Positions 338 to 6,501 of a stretch of 6,501 bases of DNA are shown in pieces. The position numbers were made by a program, and so were the translations under genes. Origin of the DNA: a virus (Duplodnaviria; Heunggongvirae; Uroviricota; Caudoviricetes); IMG/VR virus record IMGVR_UViG_2648501400_000015; one strand, written 5' to 3'. Position 1 is the stretch's first letter, and each line of letters begins with the position of its first letter. The notes under the pieces were generated by a model. The model had not been told where the DNA came from and made no database searches. It worked only from the letters and a program-made list of their open reading frames with translations.

Positions 338-413
338 TGGTGGCCCCTGCTGGACTTGAACCAGCGACCAAGCGATTATGAGTCGCTCGCTCTCACCACT
401 GAGCTAAAGGGCC
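338..413 (-). tRNA. tRNA-Ile (anticodon CAU, lysidine type, AUA decoder); nearly identical to E. coli ileX/ileY as I recall them, positioned like phage-borne ileZ
   Basis: Minus-strand sequence GGCCCTTTAGCTCAGTGGTGAGAGCGAGCGACTCATAATCGCTTGGTCGCTGGTTCAAGTCCAGCAGGGGCCACCA folds as a cloverleaf: 7-bp acceptor stem, D-arm, anticodon loop CUCAUAA (anticodon CAU), T-arm GGTTCAAGTCC, encoded CCA. A tRNA-Met identity cannot be excluded from the anticodon alone. Confidence 0.85.
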
Positions 414-518
414 GGGCGCAGGATAATAACGTTACGAAATCAATGTTGCAAGCATACAAAAATCACCCTTATCTCCTCCACCAGCGCATTCACCATGTCT
501 ATCCGAGATAAGTGGCAC

Positions 519-550
519 AAAAAAACCCGCTTGTGGGCGGGTTTTGTTTG
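519..550. terminator. rho-independent terminator (strongest on the minus strand); candidate tR'-like terminator of the short late transcript
   Basis: Stem AACCCGC (524-530), loop TTGTGG, stem GCGGGTT (537-543). On the minus strand the hairpin is followed by seven T; on the plus strand by TTTTGTTTGCTTTTG. Lies about 45-70 nt downstream of the predicted PR'-like start. Confidence 0.55.
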
Positions 551-576
551 CTTTTGCCATCACGTACAAAATCGGC

Positions 577-626
577 AAAATATCAGATTTGCATGAAATA
601 TATGCCTTTCAATCTACTTTTGCAAC
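577..626 (-). promoter_or_regulatory. PR'-like late promoter with promoter-proximal pause-like element (candidate qut region)
   Basis: Minus strand: -35 TTGCAA (625..620), 17-bp spacer, -10 TATATT (602..597), immediately after the Q-like stop codon (609-611). The initial transcribed region contains an extended -10-like TGaTATTTT (586..577), the kind of element that causes the sigma-dependent pause used for Q loading in lambdoid phages. Motif reading only. Confidence 0.4.
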
Positions 627-1298
627 ACTTTGCTTTGAAAATGCCGCCTTTTGTTTTGAACGTGTTCTCATTACAAATAATAAAGCCTCACTATCCAGTC
701 GGTGAAAAATGTGTTTCATTGCAACCCAGTGACGAGTAAATGTTTTGGACCAGTTTTTAGTTGTCACTCCCGCCAGTAATGCCAGCTCCTGATATTCATA
801 ACCTTCCCCACCAAAAAGTTCTGCTTTTACTGCCTGCGCCGCCAGCCAGATTAATTTTTTCAGGCGTTCCTGCGTTTTCCCAGCAATTTTTCTGGTACCG
901 GATTGAGTATTAAATTCATTCCACGCCCACTGTGTTATCGCGATCTGATATTCCCAACAAATACTCCCGCTGTAACACCACAACAACCAGGCTTTATGAT
1001 GTTCTTCAAGAGACAGAACAGCCCGCCGCCACGATGATGTCAAAAACTCAACCGGACTGACGAGAGGAATTGACGCCCCCTTCGCCAGCGATTGCTTTCC
1101 CGGGATTGGTGGATTATCCCGCGTTATCATTTTTCCAGTCACTTCATCGCGGTACCGGATTTTTTTACGCCTGTAACGCCCTGTATCAAACATGGCATTC
1201 TCCTGCCAGGCCTCAAGCTGCCCTTTTGTTGATCCACTCAAATCGGCGGTGGCAATCATGAGTTGCTCACGAACAAACTGTAAATACTGGTTATTCAT
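609..1298 (-). CDS. late-gene antitermination protein Q-like (229 aa)
   Basis: Complete ORF whose ATG overlaps the rusA stop (ATGA). Assignment rests on context: directly downstream of rusA, followed by a promoter overlapping its 3' end, a short-transcript terminator and a tRNA, as in lambdoid Q-PR'-tR'-tRNA modules. Not confirmed by alignment. Confidence 0.6.
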   Translation of the reverse strand: MNNQYLQFVREQLMIATADLSGSTKGQLEAWQENAMFDTGRYRRKKIRYRDEVTGKMITRDNPPIPGKQSLAKGASIPLVSPVEFLTSSWRRAVLSLEEHHKAWLLWCYSGSICWEYQIAITQWAWNEFNTQSGTRKIAGKTQERLKKLIWLAAQAVKAELFGGEGYEYQELALLAGVTTKNWSKTFTRHWVAMKHIFHRLDSEALLFVMRTRSKQKAAFSKQSVAKVD

Positions 1299-1654
1299 GC
1301 ATACTCCAGTTCTGTGATTTTTATCCCCAACCGCCCACCAGGAACAAGCTGACCGCGCACAATATTAATTTCATCAAACTGCTCGTCGTCTATGAGCAGC
1401 CCCGCATGCGTCAGTACATCCAGTGGTGCCTTCAGGATATTGTCCAGGTCACGACGGCGCTTATCCGGTGGCTCTGCAATAATTTCTATTGCCGGCCTTC
1501 CGGACAGGTTTAATTTCAGTTGCTGCTGGCGAACAATAAGCGCCACATCACGGCGATAACGCTCACCGACTTTTGATACAAAATATGTGCTGCCACGGCG
1601 TCGCCAGTAAGTGTTCACCGTCGGCGGGTAAGGTAAAACCAAATCTATGAGCAT
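1295..1654 (-). CDS. rusA: RusA-family Holliday junction resolvase (119 aa)
   Basis: Protein contains PDKRRRDLDNILKAPLDVLTHAGLLIDDEQ, matching the RusA acidic catalytic signature (RRRDLDN ... DD) and length of about 120 aa. SD AGAGGTGA lies 5 nt upstream of the ATG; stop overlaps the Q start. Confidence 0.85.
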   Translation of the reverse strand: MLIDLVLPYPPTVNTYWRRRGSTYFVSKVGERYRRDVALIVRQQQLKLNLSGRPAIEIIAEPPDKRRRDLDNILKAPLDVLTHAGLLIDDEQFDEINIVRGQLVPGGRLGIKITELEYA

Positions 1655-1666
1655 CAGTCACCTCTT

Positions 1667-2716
1667 TTACCCAAGCACGCCAGTTGCAAAGGCGTGATCA
1701 AGAAAACGAAAAATTAAATCAACCTGAGAACCATGCTTTTCTTCGAACGCCAGCGGATCCGCATGAAGCTCGTTGTGATGCTCCCGACACAGCGGTAGCG
1801 TGAAAATATCGTGAGATTTTGTCCCCATTCCGCCCTGACCATGACCAATCAGGTGATGGGGATCGTCGGCTGGCTTACCACAACACGCACACGGCTGTGT
1901 CTTCACCCAGCGTGTGTATTTCTCGTTAACCCAGCGGCGACGTTTAGGTCGTTTCATGAAAGATTCCGGAGACTCAGGATCAACGGCAATGCTGACCACC
2001 GTCTTTTCCTGTGGTGGGTTCTGTTGCTGGTGGGCGTGAGGCAGCGGCGCAAGATTTTTTGTGCGCTGTTTCAGTATGCTGGTGGCGGTCTGCTCTCCCG
2101 GTACGATGTCGCTTTCACGGTACATTGAGCGAATTTTTTCCGCACGCAACCCCAGCGAACGACGTAATACCGCTTCCGGTAGCGCGTCCGCCACCTGATT
2201 GCGGACCGCCCACCAGGATAATTCAGCCAGCGATAATTCCCGTTCCTGCGAGCCATTCATTGCATGGCGTATGACGTCAATCATCCATGCAGACAGGTTT
2301 TGGTGAGCAAGTTGCCCGAGTGATTCGGAGGTCTGGTCGCGCAGCTGGTTGTCGCAGTGCCAGCACAACACCATTGCGCCGGTACCATAACGGTGAATGA
2401 CGGTTTCACTGTGGTGATAATCACCGTGTGGCCACTGGCAGGATTTAACATGGCGCAGTAACCAGTCAGACAATGCGCCAGCGCCACCAGCAGCACGAAT
2501 CACTCGTTCGTCGCTGAAAAATGGCAGTAATGATTTATCCTCCGCCAGCGGCTGGCGAACGGCAGGAACGACCCCGGACGGCAGATTACGCATGCTTTTC
2601 GGTTCCGGCTCCACCAGTACCCGGGTATTGTGGAATACCGGCATGGATTCACGGCCCGGCTTAACGATCACCAGCCCGAGTTCCGGTACCAGAACAGGTC
2701 GAAGTAATACCCGCAC
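1667..2716 (-). CDS. DUF968/YdfU-like prophage protein with C-terminal HNH-type Cys/His motif (349 aa)
   Basis: Long ORF starting at GTG 2716, preceded by strong SD GGAGG with 4-nt spacing. C-terminal region PCACCGKPADDPHHLIGHG...LPLCREHHNELH has HNH/zinc-finger-like spacing of Cys and His. Position between the small protein and rusA matches ydfU in Qin-type prophages as I recall them. Confidence 0.6.
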   Translation of the reverse strand: MRVLLRPVLVPELGLVIVKPGRESMPVFHNTRVLVEPEPKSMRNLPSGVVPAVRQPLAEDKSLLPFFSDERVIRAAGGAGALSDWLLRHVKSCQWPHGDYHHSETVIHRYGTGAMVLCWHCDNQLRDQTSESLGQLAHQNLSAWMIDVIRHAMNGSQERELSLAELSWWAVRNQVADALPEAVLRRSLGLRAEKIRSMYRESDIVPGEQTATSILKQRTKNLAPLPHAHQQQNPPQEKTVVSIAVDPESPESFMKRPKRRRWVNEKYTRWVKTQPCACCGKPADDPHHLIGHGQGGMGTKSHDIFTLPLCREHHNELHADPLAFEEKHGSQVDLIFRFLDHAFATGVLG

Positions 2717-2717
2717 G

Positions 2718-2996
2718 TTACCTCCAGATGCGTTGCTGGAATGTGCGGGACGGACGCGGTGGTCGTTCGGAGTAAGGAAGCCTGACGGAGATTATCCAGT
2801 GACGATAATCGAGGCTGAGGGCTTTCTTAATCTCGTATCCGTGTCTGCGGTAGCACTGAATTAGCCACTCGGCCTGTTCTTCAGTGCATGGGGGATGCTG
2901 GAACCAGTCAGATTTGAAAGTGCGGGAACGCCGCCCGTGCCTGCTGGCAAAGACGGCAGAATCATCAGAATTGTGTAATTTGGTATCGTGCGCCAT
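2718..2996 (-). CDS. small prophage protein of unknown function (92 aa; positional equivalent of rem in Qin-like prophages)
   Basis: ORF ending 1 nt before the DUF968 GTG start; its stop TAA lies between the SD and start of the downstream gene. Start set at the first ATG (2996) downstream of the hok terminator; the RBS is weak, so the start is uncertain. Confidence 0.45.
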   Translation of the reverse strand: MAHDTKLHNSDDSAVFASRHGRRSRTFKSDWFQHPPCTEEQAEWLIQCYRRHGYEIKKALSLDYRHWIISVRLPYSERPPRPSRTFQQRIWR

Positions 2997-3065
2997 CGGT
3001 TGTCTCTGCTGGCGCAGCAGGTGCCAGTTGTTCAGGCTGGCGTGCGAATTGTAAACCAGAATGCC

Positions 3066-3095
3066 AGGAAAAAACAAAACCCGCCGAAGCGGGTT
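3066..3095 (-). terminator. rho-independent terminator at the 3' end of the hok mRNA
   Basis: Minus-strand stem AACCCGC, loop TTCG, stem GCGGGTT (3095..3078), followed by TTTGTTTTTTCC. Lies about 70 nt downstream of the hok stop. Confidence 0.6.
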
Positions 3096-3163
3096 AAGTG
3101 CGGGTGCGTTGAGGATGCCTGACACATCAGAGGTGGCGAGGGATTTCTCCCCCGCCTGGTCTC

Positions 3164-3319
3164 TTACTCCTCAGGTTCGTAAGCTGTGAAGACAGCGACC
3201 TCCGTCTGGCCGGTTCGGATTCGTACCTCGCAGAGGTCTTTCCTCGTTACCAGTGCCGTCACTATGACGGTTAAACAGATGACGATCAGGGCGATTAACA
3301 TCGCCTTTTGCTGCTTCAT
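3164..3319 (-). CDS. hokD: Hok/Gef-family type I toxin (51 aa), sequence as I recall HokD/RelF
   Basis: Translation MKQQKAMLIALIVICLTVIVTALVTRKDLCEVRIRTGQTEVAVFTAYEPEE: single transmembrane helix plus conserved RKDLCEV motif typical of Hok/Gef. SD AAGGAGAAG precedes the ATG at 3319. An in-frame upstream ATG at 3376 would give a 70-codon ORF. Confidence 0.9.
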   Translation of the reverse strand: MKQQKAMLIALIVICLTVIVTALVTRKDLCEVRIRTGQTEVAVFTAYEPEE

Positions 3320-3367
3320 AGCCTGCTTCTCCTTGCCTTTCGGCACGTAAGAGGCTAACCTACGTGT

Positions 3368-3440
3368 GTAGAGCATAGATATGGCCTCAGATTAATGTTA
3401 AGCGTCTTGCCGGACGCGTAATGTTAACTGGGGCTTTTCT
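3368..3440 (+). ncRNA. candidate Sok-like antisense RNA (approximate coordinates)
   Basis: Plus-strand promoter-like element inside the hok leader: TTGCCT (3333-3338), 17-bp spacer, TAACCT (3356-3361). A transcript from about 3368 would be antisense to the upstream ATG/SD region of the hok leader, as Sok is in plasmid R1 hok/sok. The 3' end is not defined. Confidence 0.3.
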
Positions 3441-3495
3441 CTATCTGCCTTTTGGTGTTCATGCCTGAGACAGATAGCCTCAAGCACCCGCAGTC

Positions 3496-3524
3496 ATTCT
3501 ACCCGTTTTAGATTTCTCAGCCAA
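3496..3524 (-). promoter_or_regulatory. predicted hok mRNA promoter
   Basis: Minus strand: -35 TTGGCT (3524..3519), 17-bp spacer, -10 TAGAAT (3501..3496). Predicted start near 3489 gives a 5' end GGGTGCTTGAGGCT..., resembling the hok mRNA 5' end of plasmid R1 as I recall it. Confidence 0.45.
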
Positions 3525-3665
3525 CTTTATGCTCACAACATATACAAATTTCCCGGTTAAAGCTCATCATGTTAGATAGTTTTTGCGTACGCACTATTTT
3601 TTTATGTAAACTGCGCAAAAAAGTTTAGCACCCTAAATTGTTAAGGGAAAATTAAGGAAGTGTTA

Positions 3666-4757
3666 ATGCTTGAGCAAACAGTAAAAAACATCAATTCACG
3701 CTTTGGCTGGCGCAACACCCGTAAGCTTCTTGGTTCATCACTGGGTGTAACGGCCCAAGGATTACCCCTTTTTATTGAACGTGTAAATAGTGTAGTTCAG
3801 CATAATCCCGACCTAAAAGACAGAATCGACGATTTCTGGAAAGGTTTAATTTTTAGCGGGAATCGATTACTTTCTATTTATAGAATCACCGATGAAGACG
3901 TAGCAAAATTACAAACAATTTTCACAAATCAGAAAAAGGACAATAGCCCCTTCTCAGAAAAATACCCAACTCCTTTATCCAGAGAGGAGCTGTTAGTTGC
4001 TGATACTGAGCTGCATTTTGCTGAACTACGTCAAGATATCATTCGTGATAAACAAATTGACACTGCTGTTTTTTTATCCAAAGCGTATTACACTGAAGTG
4101 ATAGAGCTTGACCCAACACATCTTAGCGATGCGGGTATGGAATTACGTGCTAATGGTGGAGAAATAAAATGCAAAACACGCCAAGTCACGCAATGCTTTA
4201 ATACCATCATGCTAATGCCTGCAGAAAAAATATTAATTCTTACGATTGATTTATCTATCCTTCCAAGAAGTGAATCACAGCCTCAACAATACCTTGTGGC
4301 TAAATTTATAAAAAAAGAAGCTGGCGTTATTTTAAACAATCCTCTTGAATTATTTGGTTCAATACAAGATCTTTACGAAAAAGTAGATGGCAGAATTTCT
4401 CATGTATCTTTTATCACCTCAGATGGCAATACAAGTTCTTTAAAACTCAAACCAAGTCAAAAGTGTTTGCGTCAAGATGTTTACCATCATAGTGGAGAGT
4501 CCGCAAGCCCAATATTGACAAAGTTTAAGTTGGGAAAAATTTGGGATTTACCACAAAGTTCTTCACATATTTTATCAGTAGAGTTAATATTACCAGGAAA
4601 AAGGACAATGCTTGATAATCCTAGAATTAGGTTGCATGAAGCAATTGCGAAGAACTGTAACAACATTGATTCGATTATATTTATTGTTGAAAAAATATTG
4701 GATTCTGTTAAGTCCTGTGAAGAGAAAAGAAGAGCGAGATCATCAGGCCATAAATGA
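3666..4757 (+). CDS. hypothetical protein, gene 1 of AT-rich three-gene operon (363 aa)
   Basis: ATG at 3666 preceded by SD AAGGAAG (3654-3660); the ORF track start at 3660 is a GTG placed too close to the SD. No Walker or other motif recognised. Stop TGA overlaps the next start (ATGA). Confidence 0.75.
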   Translation: MLEQTVKNINSRFGWRNTRKLLGSSLGVTAQGLPLFIERVNSVVQHNPDLKDRIDDFWKGLIFSGNRLLSIYRITDEDVAKLQTIFTNQKKDNSPFSEKYPTPLSREELLVADTELHFAELRQDIIRDKQIDTAVFLSKAYYTEVIELDPTHLSDAGMELRANGGEIKCKTRQVTQCFNTIMLMPAEKILILTIDLSILPRSESQPQQYLVAKFIKKEAGVILNNPLELFGSIQDLYEKVDGRISHVSFITSDGNTSSLKLKPSQKCLRQDVYHHSGESASPILTKFKLGKIWDLPQSSSHILSVELILPGKRTMLDNPRIRLHEAIAKNCNNIDSIIFIVEKILDSVKSCEEKRRARSSGHK

Positions 4758-5182
4758 AAAAGAGTATATATCACGACATTATCACGCAAATAGAGCAGGA
4801 TTTTAATGATCCTGTTCGCAGTGTGTGTCGTGATCTTTTTCTTTTTCTGGTTAGTAAAGATGCTAAAAATATCAATCACTTTACATACAAAACCCTTATC
4901 AATGGTTTAACCTATCTAACTGATACGAAAGATGACTATATCCTGCTAATAAAAGCAACTGATTATTTATCTAGCTATAAAGCACATCTATTGGATATGC
5001 ATTTTCAATACATTGATAATTTAACGGAAGAACCAATACCAGTTGAAGATGATCTTATTTCCTATGCTTTAGACACAGGAAGTTTTTACCATCCAGAAAC
5101 TGGCGAATTGGTTGATAATTTTAGCCAGTATCTTTATCCATACTTTACTCCTTCGAGTCTTTTGGAGAGTCTGCATGAGTGA
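4754..5182 (+). CDS. hypothetical protein, gene 2 of operon (142 aa, acidic C-terminal half)
   Basis: ATG 4754-4756 overlaps the gene 1 stop (4755-4757) with no independent strong SD, suggesting translational coupling. No motif recognised. Confidence 0.7.
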   Translation: MKKSIYHDIITQIEQDFNDPVRSVCRDLFLFLVSKDAKNINHFTYKTLINGLTYLTDTKDDYILLIKATDYLSSYKAHLLDMHFQYIDNLTEEPIPVEDDLISYALDTGSFYHPETGELVDNFSQYLYPYFTPSSLLESLHE

Positions 5183-5816
5183 TGTAAACATCTGTACTGC
5201 AGACCTTCAATCATTAATTAGAATGGATCCTGAATTTAGGGGAATGGTTCAAAGAAAATTAGCTGCAGACAAAAATATTTTTGTAAAGCAACTCTATGAA
5301 GATTTAGACGACGCTATTCAGAATTTAGAAAATGACAAACACTTCTATCAAGATGCTAAGTGGGGAGAGGACGAGCTAACAGCGTCGATCAAAAATTTCC
5401 TGAAAGGTAGGTTTTATGATGTTGAACATGATACTCAACATGGCGGTCACGTTGATTTATTAGTTAAACATCAATTCGGAAAATTCGAATGGATCGGTGA
5501 AGCAAAATTATGGAGAGGCCCCAAATCTATTCATAATGGCTGGATTCAGCTAACCGAACGTTACGGCACGGGTACGTCACGTGACGATCATGGAGGAATT
5601 CTAATTTATATAAAGTCTGACAAATCAGCAGTAAAATTCAATGAATGGAAAGAATTTTTCTCTACGACCGTTTCGGACGCAGAAATTGAAGCGGAAGGCT
5701 CTCCCCTCCGCTTTAAGAGTATCACAAAGCATCCAGCAACAGCGCTTCCATATCATGTAAGACACATGGGAGTATCCTTATACCATTACACTGGTAAAAA
5801 AACCGCTGACTCTTAA
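5175..5816 (+). CDS. hypothetical protein with PD-(D/E)xK-like motif, putative nuclease; gene 3 of operon (213 aa)
   Basis: Start chosen at ATG 5175 (MSDVNICTADL...), preceded by SD GGAGAG 5 nt upstream and overlapping the gene 2 stop by 8 nt. Motif GHVDLLV-x14-EWIGEAK (D94 ... E109-A-K111) fits the restriction-endonuclease-like core D...(D/E)xK after hydrophobic strands. Confidence 0.7.
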   Translation: MSDVNICTADLQSLIRMDPEFRGMVQRKLAADKNIFVKQLYEDLDDAIQNLENDKHFYQDAKWGEDELTASIKNFLKGRFYDVEHDTQHGGHVDLLVKHQFGKFEWIGEAKLWRGPKSIHNGWIQLTERYGTGTSRDDHGGILIYIKSDKSAVKFNEWKEFFSTTVSDAEIEAEGSPLRFKSITKHPATALPYHVRHMGVSLYHYTGKKTADS

Positions 5817-6334
5817 CTGGTAATTGCTATATATCCAGTCAAAAAACCTAAGGCTTTTTGCAATCTTTTACGAATTGTTCCATCTGAACATCCTTGTTGC
5901 TTTGCAATAGCACGAAGAGATAAACCAATCACGAAATGAGCAACAATTAACTCATATTCTTGTTGCTTATATCTTTCTAACCTAAGGATACTAATGTCAA
6001 TAATTCGCCCTTCATCATTGCTGCACTGACGACGTGATTTTTTACCATGAGGAACAACATTTTTATATTTATCAGCTATTTCCTGCCAATCAATAGAACT
6101 ATTACCAGCCACAACCCAAGCCCCCCAATCGTCTAAAATCTCACATATATCAACATTACTATCCATCTGTTTTTTATTTTCTATTTTGAAATAACCAAGC
6201 AGCATTCTAGCCATTGTTGTTATTTCTATACTTGTAACTGACTCATAAGCATGAGGAGAAACAATTCTCTCATCACTTAATGCCCAATCACTAAGGTTTG
6301 CTATTTCCAACAATCGTTCTTTAGTTATTCCCAT
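5813..6334 (-). CDS. hypothetical regulator with C-terminal sigma-70 region-4-like HTH (173 aa)
   Basis: ATG at 6334 preceded by SD GGAG with 6-nt spacing; the ORF track start at 6346 is GTG. C-terminal ELIVAHFVIGLSLRAIAKQQGCSDGTIRKRLQKAL matches the region-4/LuxR-type HTH pattern. AT-rich like the operon; convergent with gene 3 and overlapping it at the stop codons. Confidence 0.65.
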   Translation of the reverse strand: MGITKERLLEIANLSDWALSDERIVSPHAYESVTSIEITTMARMLLGYFKIENKKQMDSNVDICEILDDWGAWVVAGNSSIDWQEIADKYKNVVPHGKKSRRQCSNDEGRIIDISILRLERYKQQEYELIVAHFVIGLSLRAIAKQQGCSDGTIRKRLQKALGFLTGYIAITS

Positions 6335-6346
6335 TATTATCTCCAC

Positions 6347-6362
6347 CGCCCTTTCGGGCGGC
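6347..6362. other. GC-rich hairpin immediately upstream of the regulator gene RBS
   Basis: CCGCCC-TTTC-GGGCGG (perfect 6-bp GC stem, 4-nt loop) in an otherwise AT-rich stretch. No clear U-tract on either strand, so role is unclear (attenuator, processing site or island boundary). Confidence 0.3.
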
Positions 6363-6501
6363 CTCCTGATGATTTGAGGGTGCAGGAATCCCTCCGGTTA
6401 AGGATTTAATAAAAATCGTTTCTGATTTAAATCTTCAGTATTTAGTTGTTAGTCGGTTTATAGCCTTTATGCTTCGGCCTTATTTCTCAGCCATACACAA
6501 A

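Follow-up and report, generated by a model that had tools for sequence, protein, structure and literature searches.

The window, the whole 6,501-nt stretch of DNA analyzed here, carries on its minus strand (3524..3066) what its sequence identifies as a complete hok/mok/sok type I toxin-antitoxin module. It is an ordinary, textbook hok/sok RNA-controlled toxin-antitoxin of the hokD/hokW lineage, resident in a lambdoid prophage. A sequence-only reading of the window had called the region a complete hok/sok-type locus, and this is borne out. Every element that it listed was found where it had been placed on the minus strand, based on a promoter and terminator scan, the open reading frame (ORF) list, and Rfam, and the limits given (3066 and 3524) are exactly the terminator and promoter bounds of the scan. 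The leader, moreover, is full length; in the alignment that had been named as the decisive check, it is untruncated relative to hokW of phage 933W, hokC, and the R1-type plasmid hok. The implied novelty, however, fails: the complete form is common in E. coli, and the locus is already known through a near-identical homologue, hokW/sokW, that is annotated and experimentally characterized. The window module is free of IS elements, frameshifts, and truncations, unlike K-12 hokC, K-12 hokD, and the pEc1077 copy.

The elements are listed below from the promoter to the terminator of the hok transcript. Positions in the mRNA (nt) are counted on the minus strand as 3489 minus the window coordinate, plus 1.

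3496..3524, minus strand: hok/mok promoter, with -35 TTGGCT (3524-3519), a 17-nt spacer, and -10 TAGAAT (3501-3496); from the promoter scan
3478..3489, minus strand: +1 (G at 3489) and tac, GGGUGCUUGAGG; the Rfam RF01794 match starts at +1
3320..3489, minus strand: hok/mok leader, 170 nt; from the Rfam RF01794 match, nascent-transcript folds, and compensatory changes
3430..3436, minus strand: ucb, or anti-Shine-Dalgarno box, AAGCCCC; from minimum-energy and constrained folds
3385..3388, minus strand: mok Shine-Dalgarno GAGG, 8 nt upstream of the mok AUG; read from the sequence
3164..3376, minus strand: mok ORF, 70 codons, in frame with hok, AUG at 3376; from the ORF list
3368..3438, plus strand: predicted Sok-like antisense RNA, ~71 nt; ends transferred from annotated sokW (933W) and sokC (K-12)
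3333..3361, plus strand: Sok promoter, with -35 TTGCCT (3333-3338), a 17-nt spacer, and -10 TAACCT (3356-3361)
3329..3334, minus strand: hok Shine-Dalgarno AAGGAG; read from the sequence
3164..3319, minus strand: hok toxin gene, 51 aa (MKQQKAML...YEPEE), stop codon 3166-3164; Pfam PF01848
3135..3156, minus strand: 3' UTR hairpin, GGCGGGGGAGAAAUCCCUCGCC, presumably the protective terminus once the mRNA is processed; from folds
3126..3133, minus strand: dcb, CCUCUGAU; from the trimmed-mRNA minimum-energy fold and tac/ucb-constrained folds
3102..3114, minus strand: fbi fold-back element, CCUCAACGCACCC, complementary to tac; from folds
3066..3095, minus strand: intrinsic terminator of the hok mRNA, a stem-loop (3095-3078) and a T run to ~3066; from the terminator scan

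The toxin comprises the last 51 codons of the 70-codon ORF (ATG at 3319), MKQQKAMLIALIVICLTVIVTALVTRKDLCEVRIRTGQTEVAVFTAYEPEE. Its product matches Pfam PF01848 (HOK_GEF) with E=2.9e-23 and 81.6 bits against a cut-off of 22, while the match to the NCBIfam Hok subfamily falls under the cut-off (48.5 vs 73). The longer frame belongs to PHROG 251, 'MokW-like host killing' (E=7.8e-33), and its start aligns exactly with the annotated starts of mokW and mokC. The upstream in-frame ATG that had been reported to open a 70-codon ORF was found, with the ORF at 3376..3164 and the Hok ATG at 3319 in the same frame. An in-frame mok is not unusual; the mokW/hokW and mokC/hokC annotations likewise share stop coordinates, whereas the stops of mokB and hokB are not shared and mokB is out of frame.

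Upstream of the toxin, the leader had been put at about 170 nt, which is the distance from 3489 to the hok AUG at 3319. It is matched end to end by Rfam family RF01794 ('sok'), whose hit at 3489..3314 (minus strand) scores 117.1 bits against a gathering score of 59 (E=5.5e-27) and covers model positions 1-157 of 157. The printed consensus of the family begins GGGUGCUUGAG and finishes at the hok AUG. Because this match lies on the hok strand, it identifies the leader, i.e., the Sok target, and not an antisense transcript as such. The leader contains a metastable 5' hairpin (nt 1-13 with 19-36) and a stable hairpin (nt 13-49). The promoter and terminator that the locus had been said to own were both recovered by the scan (3524..3496, and 3095..3078 with its T run). 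In all 13 of the homologues inspected, a -10 hexamer (TAGAAT, TACAAT, TATAAT, or TATGAT) sits 6 nt from the conserved +1; the -35 region of hok is only loosely conserved among them.

On the opposite strand, a promoter-like element for a Sok-like RNA had also been predicted, and it is present as sequence (TTGCCT-17-TAACCT). Its hexamers are base-for-base those of the sokW promoter of phages 933W and Sp5, and the R1-type locus has a Sok promoter at the equivalent position (TTGCGC/TATCCT). A generic promoter and terminator scan of the window returned no plus-strand Sok promoter or terminator, the promoter being missed because its -10 fits the consensus at only 3 of 6 positions; since the hexamers are identical to a validated promoter, we do not take this negative as absence. 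The Sok-like RNA is predicted to consist of a 15-nt single-stranded 5' tail, a long hairpin (3383-3435), and then UUUUCUCU with the U run, and it is complementary to ucb, the mok Shine-Dalgarno, and the mok AUG. Its fold has a dG of -28.6 kcal/mol (z = -5.4), and 0 of 200 shuffles were equally stable. These features describe a putative cis-encoded Sok whose promoter lies in the leader and whose RNA has a single-stranded 5' tail and a terminator hairpin.

Both promoters nonetheless fit the consensus weakly, and hok is codirectional with the nin-region genes (DUF968, rusA, Q), so that early phage transcripts would cross it. The locus could, on these grounds, be a read-through passenger like K-12 hokD, with hok and Sok 'promoters' that are non-functional sequence matches. 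We consider this very improbable. The -10 hexamers of both promoters hold their position across prophage, plasmid, hokC, and R1-type loci; Takada et al. mutated the same TAACCT hexamer in sokW (primer YO-421) and thereby abolished antitoxin activity (PMC8621323); and both hokW and sokW RNAs were detected by northern blot in the uninduced lysogen, with sokW vanishing on induction (PMC8621323). A narrower version, in which hok is the passenger of an upstream operon, was rejected on gene orientation. A three-gene cassette adjoins the module immediately upstream on the opposite strand to hok, and there is thus no relBE-like operon on which to ride. When the three cassette proteins were compared with Pfam, PADLOC, and NCBIfam, only PHROG families of unknown function and one weak PADLOC match were obtained, and a search of PDB sequences with two of them found nothing.

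The contrast with K-12 lies in exactly these regulatory elements. It had been stated that K-12 hokD (relF, Qin prophage) rides on relBE without regulatory elements of its own, and this is accurate: relB-relE stand directly upstream in both MG1655 and a K-12-type strain, and hokD is co-transcribed with relBE (PMC3598666). The accompanying statement that relBE is absent here was also correct, as neither relB nor relE was found in the window by ORF list or Pfam; instead of the relBE-hokD (relBEF) arrangement, a full hok leader lies upstream. Homology to K-12 is confined to window 3333..3070, where identity to MG1655 is 98.9%, and the breakpoint at 3333 falls 14 nt before the hok AUG, within the hok Shine-Dalgarno and the Sok -35 hexamer. 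On the near side of this breakpoint, the two loci have the same toxin gene (CDS identical at 156 of 156 nt to the K-12-type strain), the same 3' UTR, and the same downstream synteny of a 92-aa ORF, DUF968/ydfU, and Q, except that K-12 has rem between hokD and the 92-aa ORF. On the far side, K-12 hokD is without the hok promoter, tac, ucb, Sok target, mok start, and Sok -10, and relB-relE in their place supply transcription; dcb and fbi are still kept as orphans. In the literature, a genomic rearrangement is considered to have inactivated K-12 hokD (PMC12214031). The window is the unrearranged form of the locus that K-12 has as a leaderless relBE-hokD fusion.

The closest characterized relative is mokW/hokW/sokW of the Stx2 phage 933W (GenBank AF125520), with a counterpart in Sp5 (VT2-Sakai). 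The two loci are colinear, with leaders that are 93.5% and coding sequences that are 94.9% identical. In addition to the Sok promoter, they share the hok -10, tac, ucb, an in-frame 70-codon mok, a 71-nt Sok, a 51-aa Hok, fbi, and a lambdoid (pro)phage carrier. They differ at both edges, as homology stops just past fbi to leave a different terminator and downstream DNA (3' region 74.5% identical) and the region upstream of the -10 is only 56% identical; the patch that encodes the Sok tail and mok codons 2-5 is also a different allele. HokW, which is 44% identical to R1 Hok (PMC8621323), is toxic, and sokW expressed from its own promoter neutralizes it, aided by RNase III and Hfq (Takada et al. 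2021, PMC8621323). The position within the phage differs as well. HokW is encoded toward the right end of its phage and antisense to the late genes, whereas the window copy occupies the nin region, codirectional with DUF968-rusA-Q. An induction-linked role may therefore not transfer from hokW to the window copy.

Relative to hok/sok (parB) of plasmid R1 and other IncF loci, the regulatory logic, element order, Sok promoter position, and 5'-3' fold-back of the R1-type control are all shared, and the window leader matches an Rfam family that was built on R1/IncF-type loci. Nucleotide identity, however, is only ~50%; the Sok hairpin region has a 16-nt insertion relative to the Rfam consensus; the tac/fbi pairing is longer (12 bp vs 7 contiguous + 2 pairs in the R1-type control); and the host replicon is a prophage rather than a low-copy plasmid. 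Similarly, hokC/mokC/sokC (gef) is colinear with the window module, with an in-frame mok at the same start position, an identical tac, and a CDS that is 84.6% identical, but its leader is only 63.5% identical and it occupies a core-chromosome site instead of a prophage. In K-12 hokC, IS186 interrupts the 3' hairpin, and fbi is gone. This hairpin is the site of IS186/IS421 insertion in both K-12 hokC and the pEc1077 copy, and it is intact in the window.

The leader and 3' end were then considered together as a folding RNA. In the minimum-energy fold of the 418-nt full-length mRNA, nt 1-12 pair with nt 376-388 at probabilities of 0.96-1.0; this is the tac/fbi pairing, a 12-bp duplex with one bulge and -21.5 kcal/mol, and in the same fold ucb covers the mok Shine-Dalgarno. 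In the first 40 nt of the nascent mRNA, the metastable hairpin is the minimum-energy fold and hides tac. When the mRNA stops at nt 350-353 or 365, tac/ucb becomes the minimum-energy fold, and in such trimmed-mRNA folds the predicted partner of the mok Shine-Dalgarno changes from ucb to dcb. At other 3' ends up to nt 375, tac/ucb lies 0.6-3.3 kcal/mol above the minimum-energy fold. That tac/ucb is not the minimum-energy fold at every plausible 3' end is an observation that counts against the switch.

Folding in silico, as modeled here, reproduces the plasmid R1 pathway of tac/fbi closure, tac/ucb opening after trimming, and a metastable 5' hairpin, and the same succession of states has been described for R1 hok mRNA (PMC9841398). 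When the same script was run on the R1-type control, an IncFII plasmid locus that stood in for R1 and encodes a 100%-identical Hok, it recovered that locus's own tac/fbi pairing with different sequences. For K-12 hokB, the tac motif searched for was not found, and this locus was left out as a control.

Support for the helices also comes from covariation in an alignment of 12 homologues that includes prophage, phage, and plasmid copies, an IS-free hokC, and the R1-type hok. On this alignment, 91.9% of cells in the full-length structure are paired, a percentage that is inflated because the window sequence itself supplied the structure being tested. This bias weighs less on the number of compensatory pairs: 19 pairs changed on both sides, compared with 6.2 ± 2.0 in shuffled and 1-11 in slid controls. 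Compensatory changes fall in the leader helix nt 13-22/40-49 and in helices 17 and 18 of the 3' hairpin. The tac/fbi helix is invariant within the close clade, and covariation there consequently says nothing either way. The anatomy, homology, predicted folds, and covariation of the module are direct results of the analysis.

We think it probable that the window module works by the R1-type mechanism. The weak promoter would yield a hok mRNA of ~420 nt, the 5' end of which would be kept in the metastable hairpin during synthesis. Once finished, the mRNA would be shut by the 12-bp tac/fbi pairing of its ends, with ucb masking the mok ribosome-binding site, and in this closed state it would be neither translated nor bound by Sok. 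Slow trimming of the 3' end would then strip fbi, allowing tac to pair with ucb and freeing the mok ribosome-binding site. An abundant but unstable Sok of ~71 nt would meet the opened mRNA, with its single-stranded 5' tail pairing over the mok ribosome-binding site and start codon; the pairing would block translation of mok, and hence the coupled translation of hok, and would mark the duplex for RNase III. If Sok synthesis stopped, whether because the element was lost, transcription was shut off, or the prophage was induced, Hok would be made and the inner membrane depolarized. For R1, it is known that the 3' end is processed, that Sok is unstable, that RNase III cleaves the duplex, and that cells are killed when Sok is lost (PMC9841398), and part of this is also known for hokW/sokW (PMC8621323); for the window copy, the same processing, instability, cleavage, and killing would follow by analogy with the R1 and hokW work. 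The role in the prophage is less certain than the mechanism, and the evidence fits prophage addiction, help with lysis (as in the case of hokW), and phage exclusion alike.

The sequence-only reading had termed the locus possibly functional, and that wording is apt, as this particular copy is known from its sequence and its function is suggested by homology. The main rival is that the module is an intact-looking but physiologically inert single-copy element that persists by recent horizontal spread rather than selection for function. There is precedent for inactivity. Intact chromosomal hokA, hokB, and hokC are reported to give no post-segregational killing or rifampicin activation, in work summarized in a recent preprint (bioRxiv 10.1101/2025.08.07.668861); hok copies decay repeatedly, either through IS186/IS421 in the 3' hairpin or through relBE replacing the leader; and deletion of hokW-sokW is without effect on growth under normal conditions (PMC8621323). 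Sequence conservation argues otherwise. Among 89 unique homologues, nucleotide diversity (pi) is 0.0 in the invariant tac and 0.006 in ucb, compared with 0.089 across the module and 0.092 at hok third codon positions, and compensatory changes preserve the helices. Experiments on relatives point the same way: the 94%-identical hokW/sokW is toxic and Sok-neutralized, and its deletion halves phage release (PMC8621323), while R1 hok kills from a single chromosomal copy when Sok is lacking (PMC9841398). An inert copy is therefore unlikely in our judgment, and the R1-type mechanism remains the preferred reading.

The segment that encodes the single-stranded 5' tail of Sok is the most variable part of the module. 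In a sample of 120 IMG/VR contigs, which yield 89 unique phage-borne sequences, variability over 10-nt stretches peaks at mRNA nt 117-126 (window 3373-3364), and nt 107-113 are nearly as variable; in both stretches, pi reaches ~0.37, four times the hok third-codon value. The same peak was seen first among 9 close homologues. The 20-nt patch as a whole (~3383-3363) encodes the Sok 5' tail on one strand and, on the other, the spacer between the mok Shine-Dalgarno and AUG together with mok codons 2-5. The 120-contig search pattern forced the flanks of the patch, and the mok AUG that lies between the two variable stretches, to be invariant; the AUG does not vary in the unconstrained set of 9 either. 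Nineteen patch alleles occur over the 120 contigs, and the window allele is the commonest (25 of 120).

Both pairing partners are read from the same DNA, so each allele stays self-complementary, and different alleles would consequently shield co-resident hok/sok copies from each other's Sok. We raise tentatively, as a possibility with the odds against it, that the patch is a diversifying specificity determinant of Sok pairing; relaxed constraint is an alternative reading of the same variability. Only three pairs of copies in the sample come from the same genome; two of them differ in Sok-tail allele, and random pairing predicts that 88% would be different.

Finally, the genomic setting is the nin region of a lambdoid prophage. 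Window 338..6501 is 99.8% identical to a prophage of E. coli O127:H6 E2348/69, and the genes downstream on the hok strand encode a 92-aa ORF, a DUF968 protein, RusA, and the antiterminator Q. At least 80% of a 521-nt query was found in 3798 of 5426 complete E. coli genomes (~70%), with a median of 2 and up to 10 copies per genome with a match, and 102 phage records also match. In the E2348/69 prophage, RefSeq annotates only the Hok CDS, under the name hokD; with mok and the Sok RNA missing there, the regulatory genes are absent from the annotation of most E. coli genomes.

Overall, K-12 is the atypical case, and the complete version of the locus is the common E. coli form. Beyond correct annotation, the significance of the window copy is slight. 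If pairing specificity is indeed set by the Sok-tail patch, this would account for how genomes with multiple prophage copies of hok/sok escape cross-neutralization.

The hok/sok module, a type I toxin-antitoxin locus on the minus strand (3524-3066) with Sok encoded on the plus strand, lies in a stretch of lambdoid phage genes with the following neighbors and overlapping features.

338-413, minus strand: tRNA with anticodon CAT (Met according to ARAGORN; tRNA-Ile in RefSeq for E. coli O127:H6 strain E2348/69)
609-1298, minus strand: Q-type antiterminator gene
2718-3125, minus strand: GTG-initiated ORF of 135 aa, overlapping the hok 3' UTR and terminator
3660-5816, plus strand: three-gene cassette (proteins of ~363, 142, and 197 aa)
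5813-6346, minus strand: Q-type antiterminator gene

Two Q-type antiterminator genes occur inside 6.5 kb; the annotation of one reads bacteriophage antitermination protein Q, and the other encodes a 177-aa protein with a PF06530 match (E=9e-32) and a sigma-70 region 4-like match. Their co-occurrence points to a nin/Q region that is mosaic or duplicated. The tRNA is of the type that Stx-type phages commonly carry downstream of Q. The match to the E2348/69 prophage ends at window position 337, where that genome instead carries a tRNA-Arg and ISEc13, so the window comes from a close relative of this strain and not from the strain itself.

The three-gene cassette is transcribed divergently from hok and is AT-rich, with a GC content of 33-39% versus 53-57% in the nin genes. 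By eye, its third protein features a D...EAK stretch, HVDLLVKHQFGKFEWIGEAKLW, that resembles the PD-(D/E)xK nuclease motif. In the Qin prophage of K-12, the same slot is held by relBE-ydfV-flxA. None of the three proteins matched Pfam or NCBIfam, and the first and third (~363 and 197 aa) had no match among PDB sequences; matches were limited to PHROGs 12777, 11490, and 9664, all of unknown function, and a single weak PADLOC match (PDC-S54, E=1.4e-3). We consider the region a candidate moron or defence cassette.

On the other side of the module, the 135-aa ORF that runs into the 3' end of hok is probably an artefactual extension. The RefSeq ORF at this locus spans 92 aa (2718-2996), and the match to PHROG 1212 is confined to residues 27-92.

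Within the module itself, hok mRNAs have a GC-rich 3' hairpin (3156-3135) that is a repeated insertion site for IS186/IS421. K-12 hokC and the hokD-like copy on the IncF-type plasmid pEc1077-100 are broken at the identical point by the same IS end, CATAAGCGCTAACTTAAGGGTTG; in the window this hairpin is uninterrupted. Also retained is a potential A-to-I site at Hok Tyr47, whose UAC codon (3181-3178, minus strand) falls within CUUACGAAC, a context that includes the TadA UACG motif; low-level editing is reported to recode the same Tyr to Cys in K-12 hokD, hokC, and hokE (PMC12214031).

Across phage-borne homologues (89 unique sequences among 120 IMG/VR contigs), variability in the module peaks at 3383-3363, where nucleotide diversity reaches ~0.37 versus 0.089 overall and 19 alleles are found across the 120 contigs. 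This patch overlaps both the single-stranded 5' tail of Sok and mok codons 2-5, and it may determine the specificity of Sok/hok pairing.

Finally, most E. coli genomes and phages share homology with the window from 3502, directly upstream of the hok -10 element (TAGAAT, 3501-3496), to a point just past the fold-back element of the mRNA 3' region (fbi, 3114-3102); this end lies at 3070, and in Stx phages at 3092. Judging from these shared limits, the hok/sok module behaves as a discrete cassette of ~410-430 bp that has been transferred among differing phage contexts.
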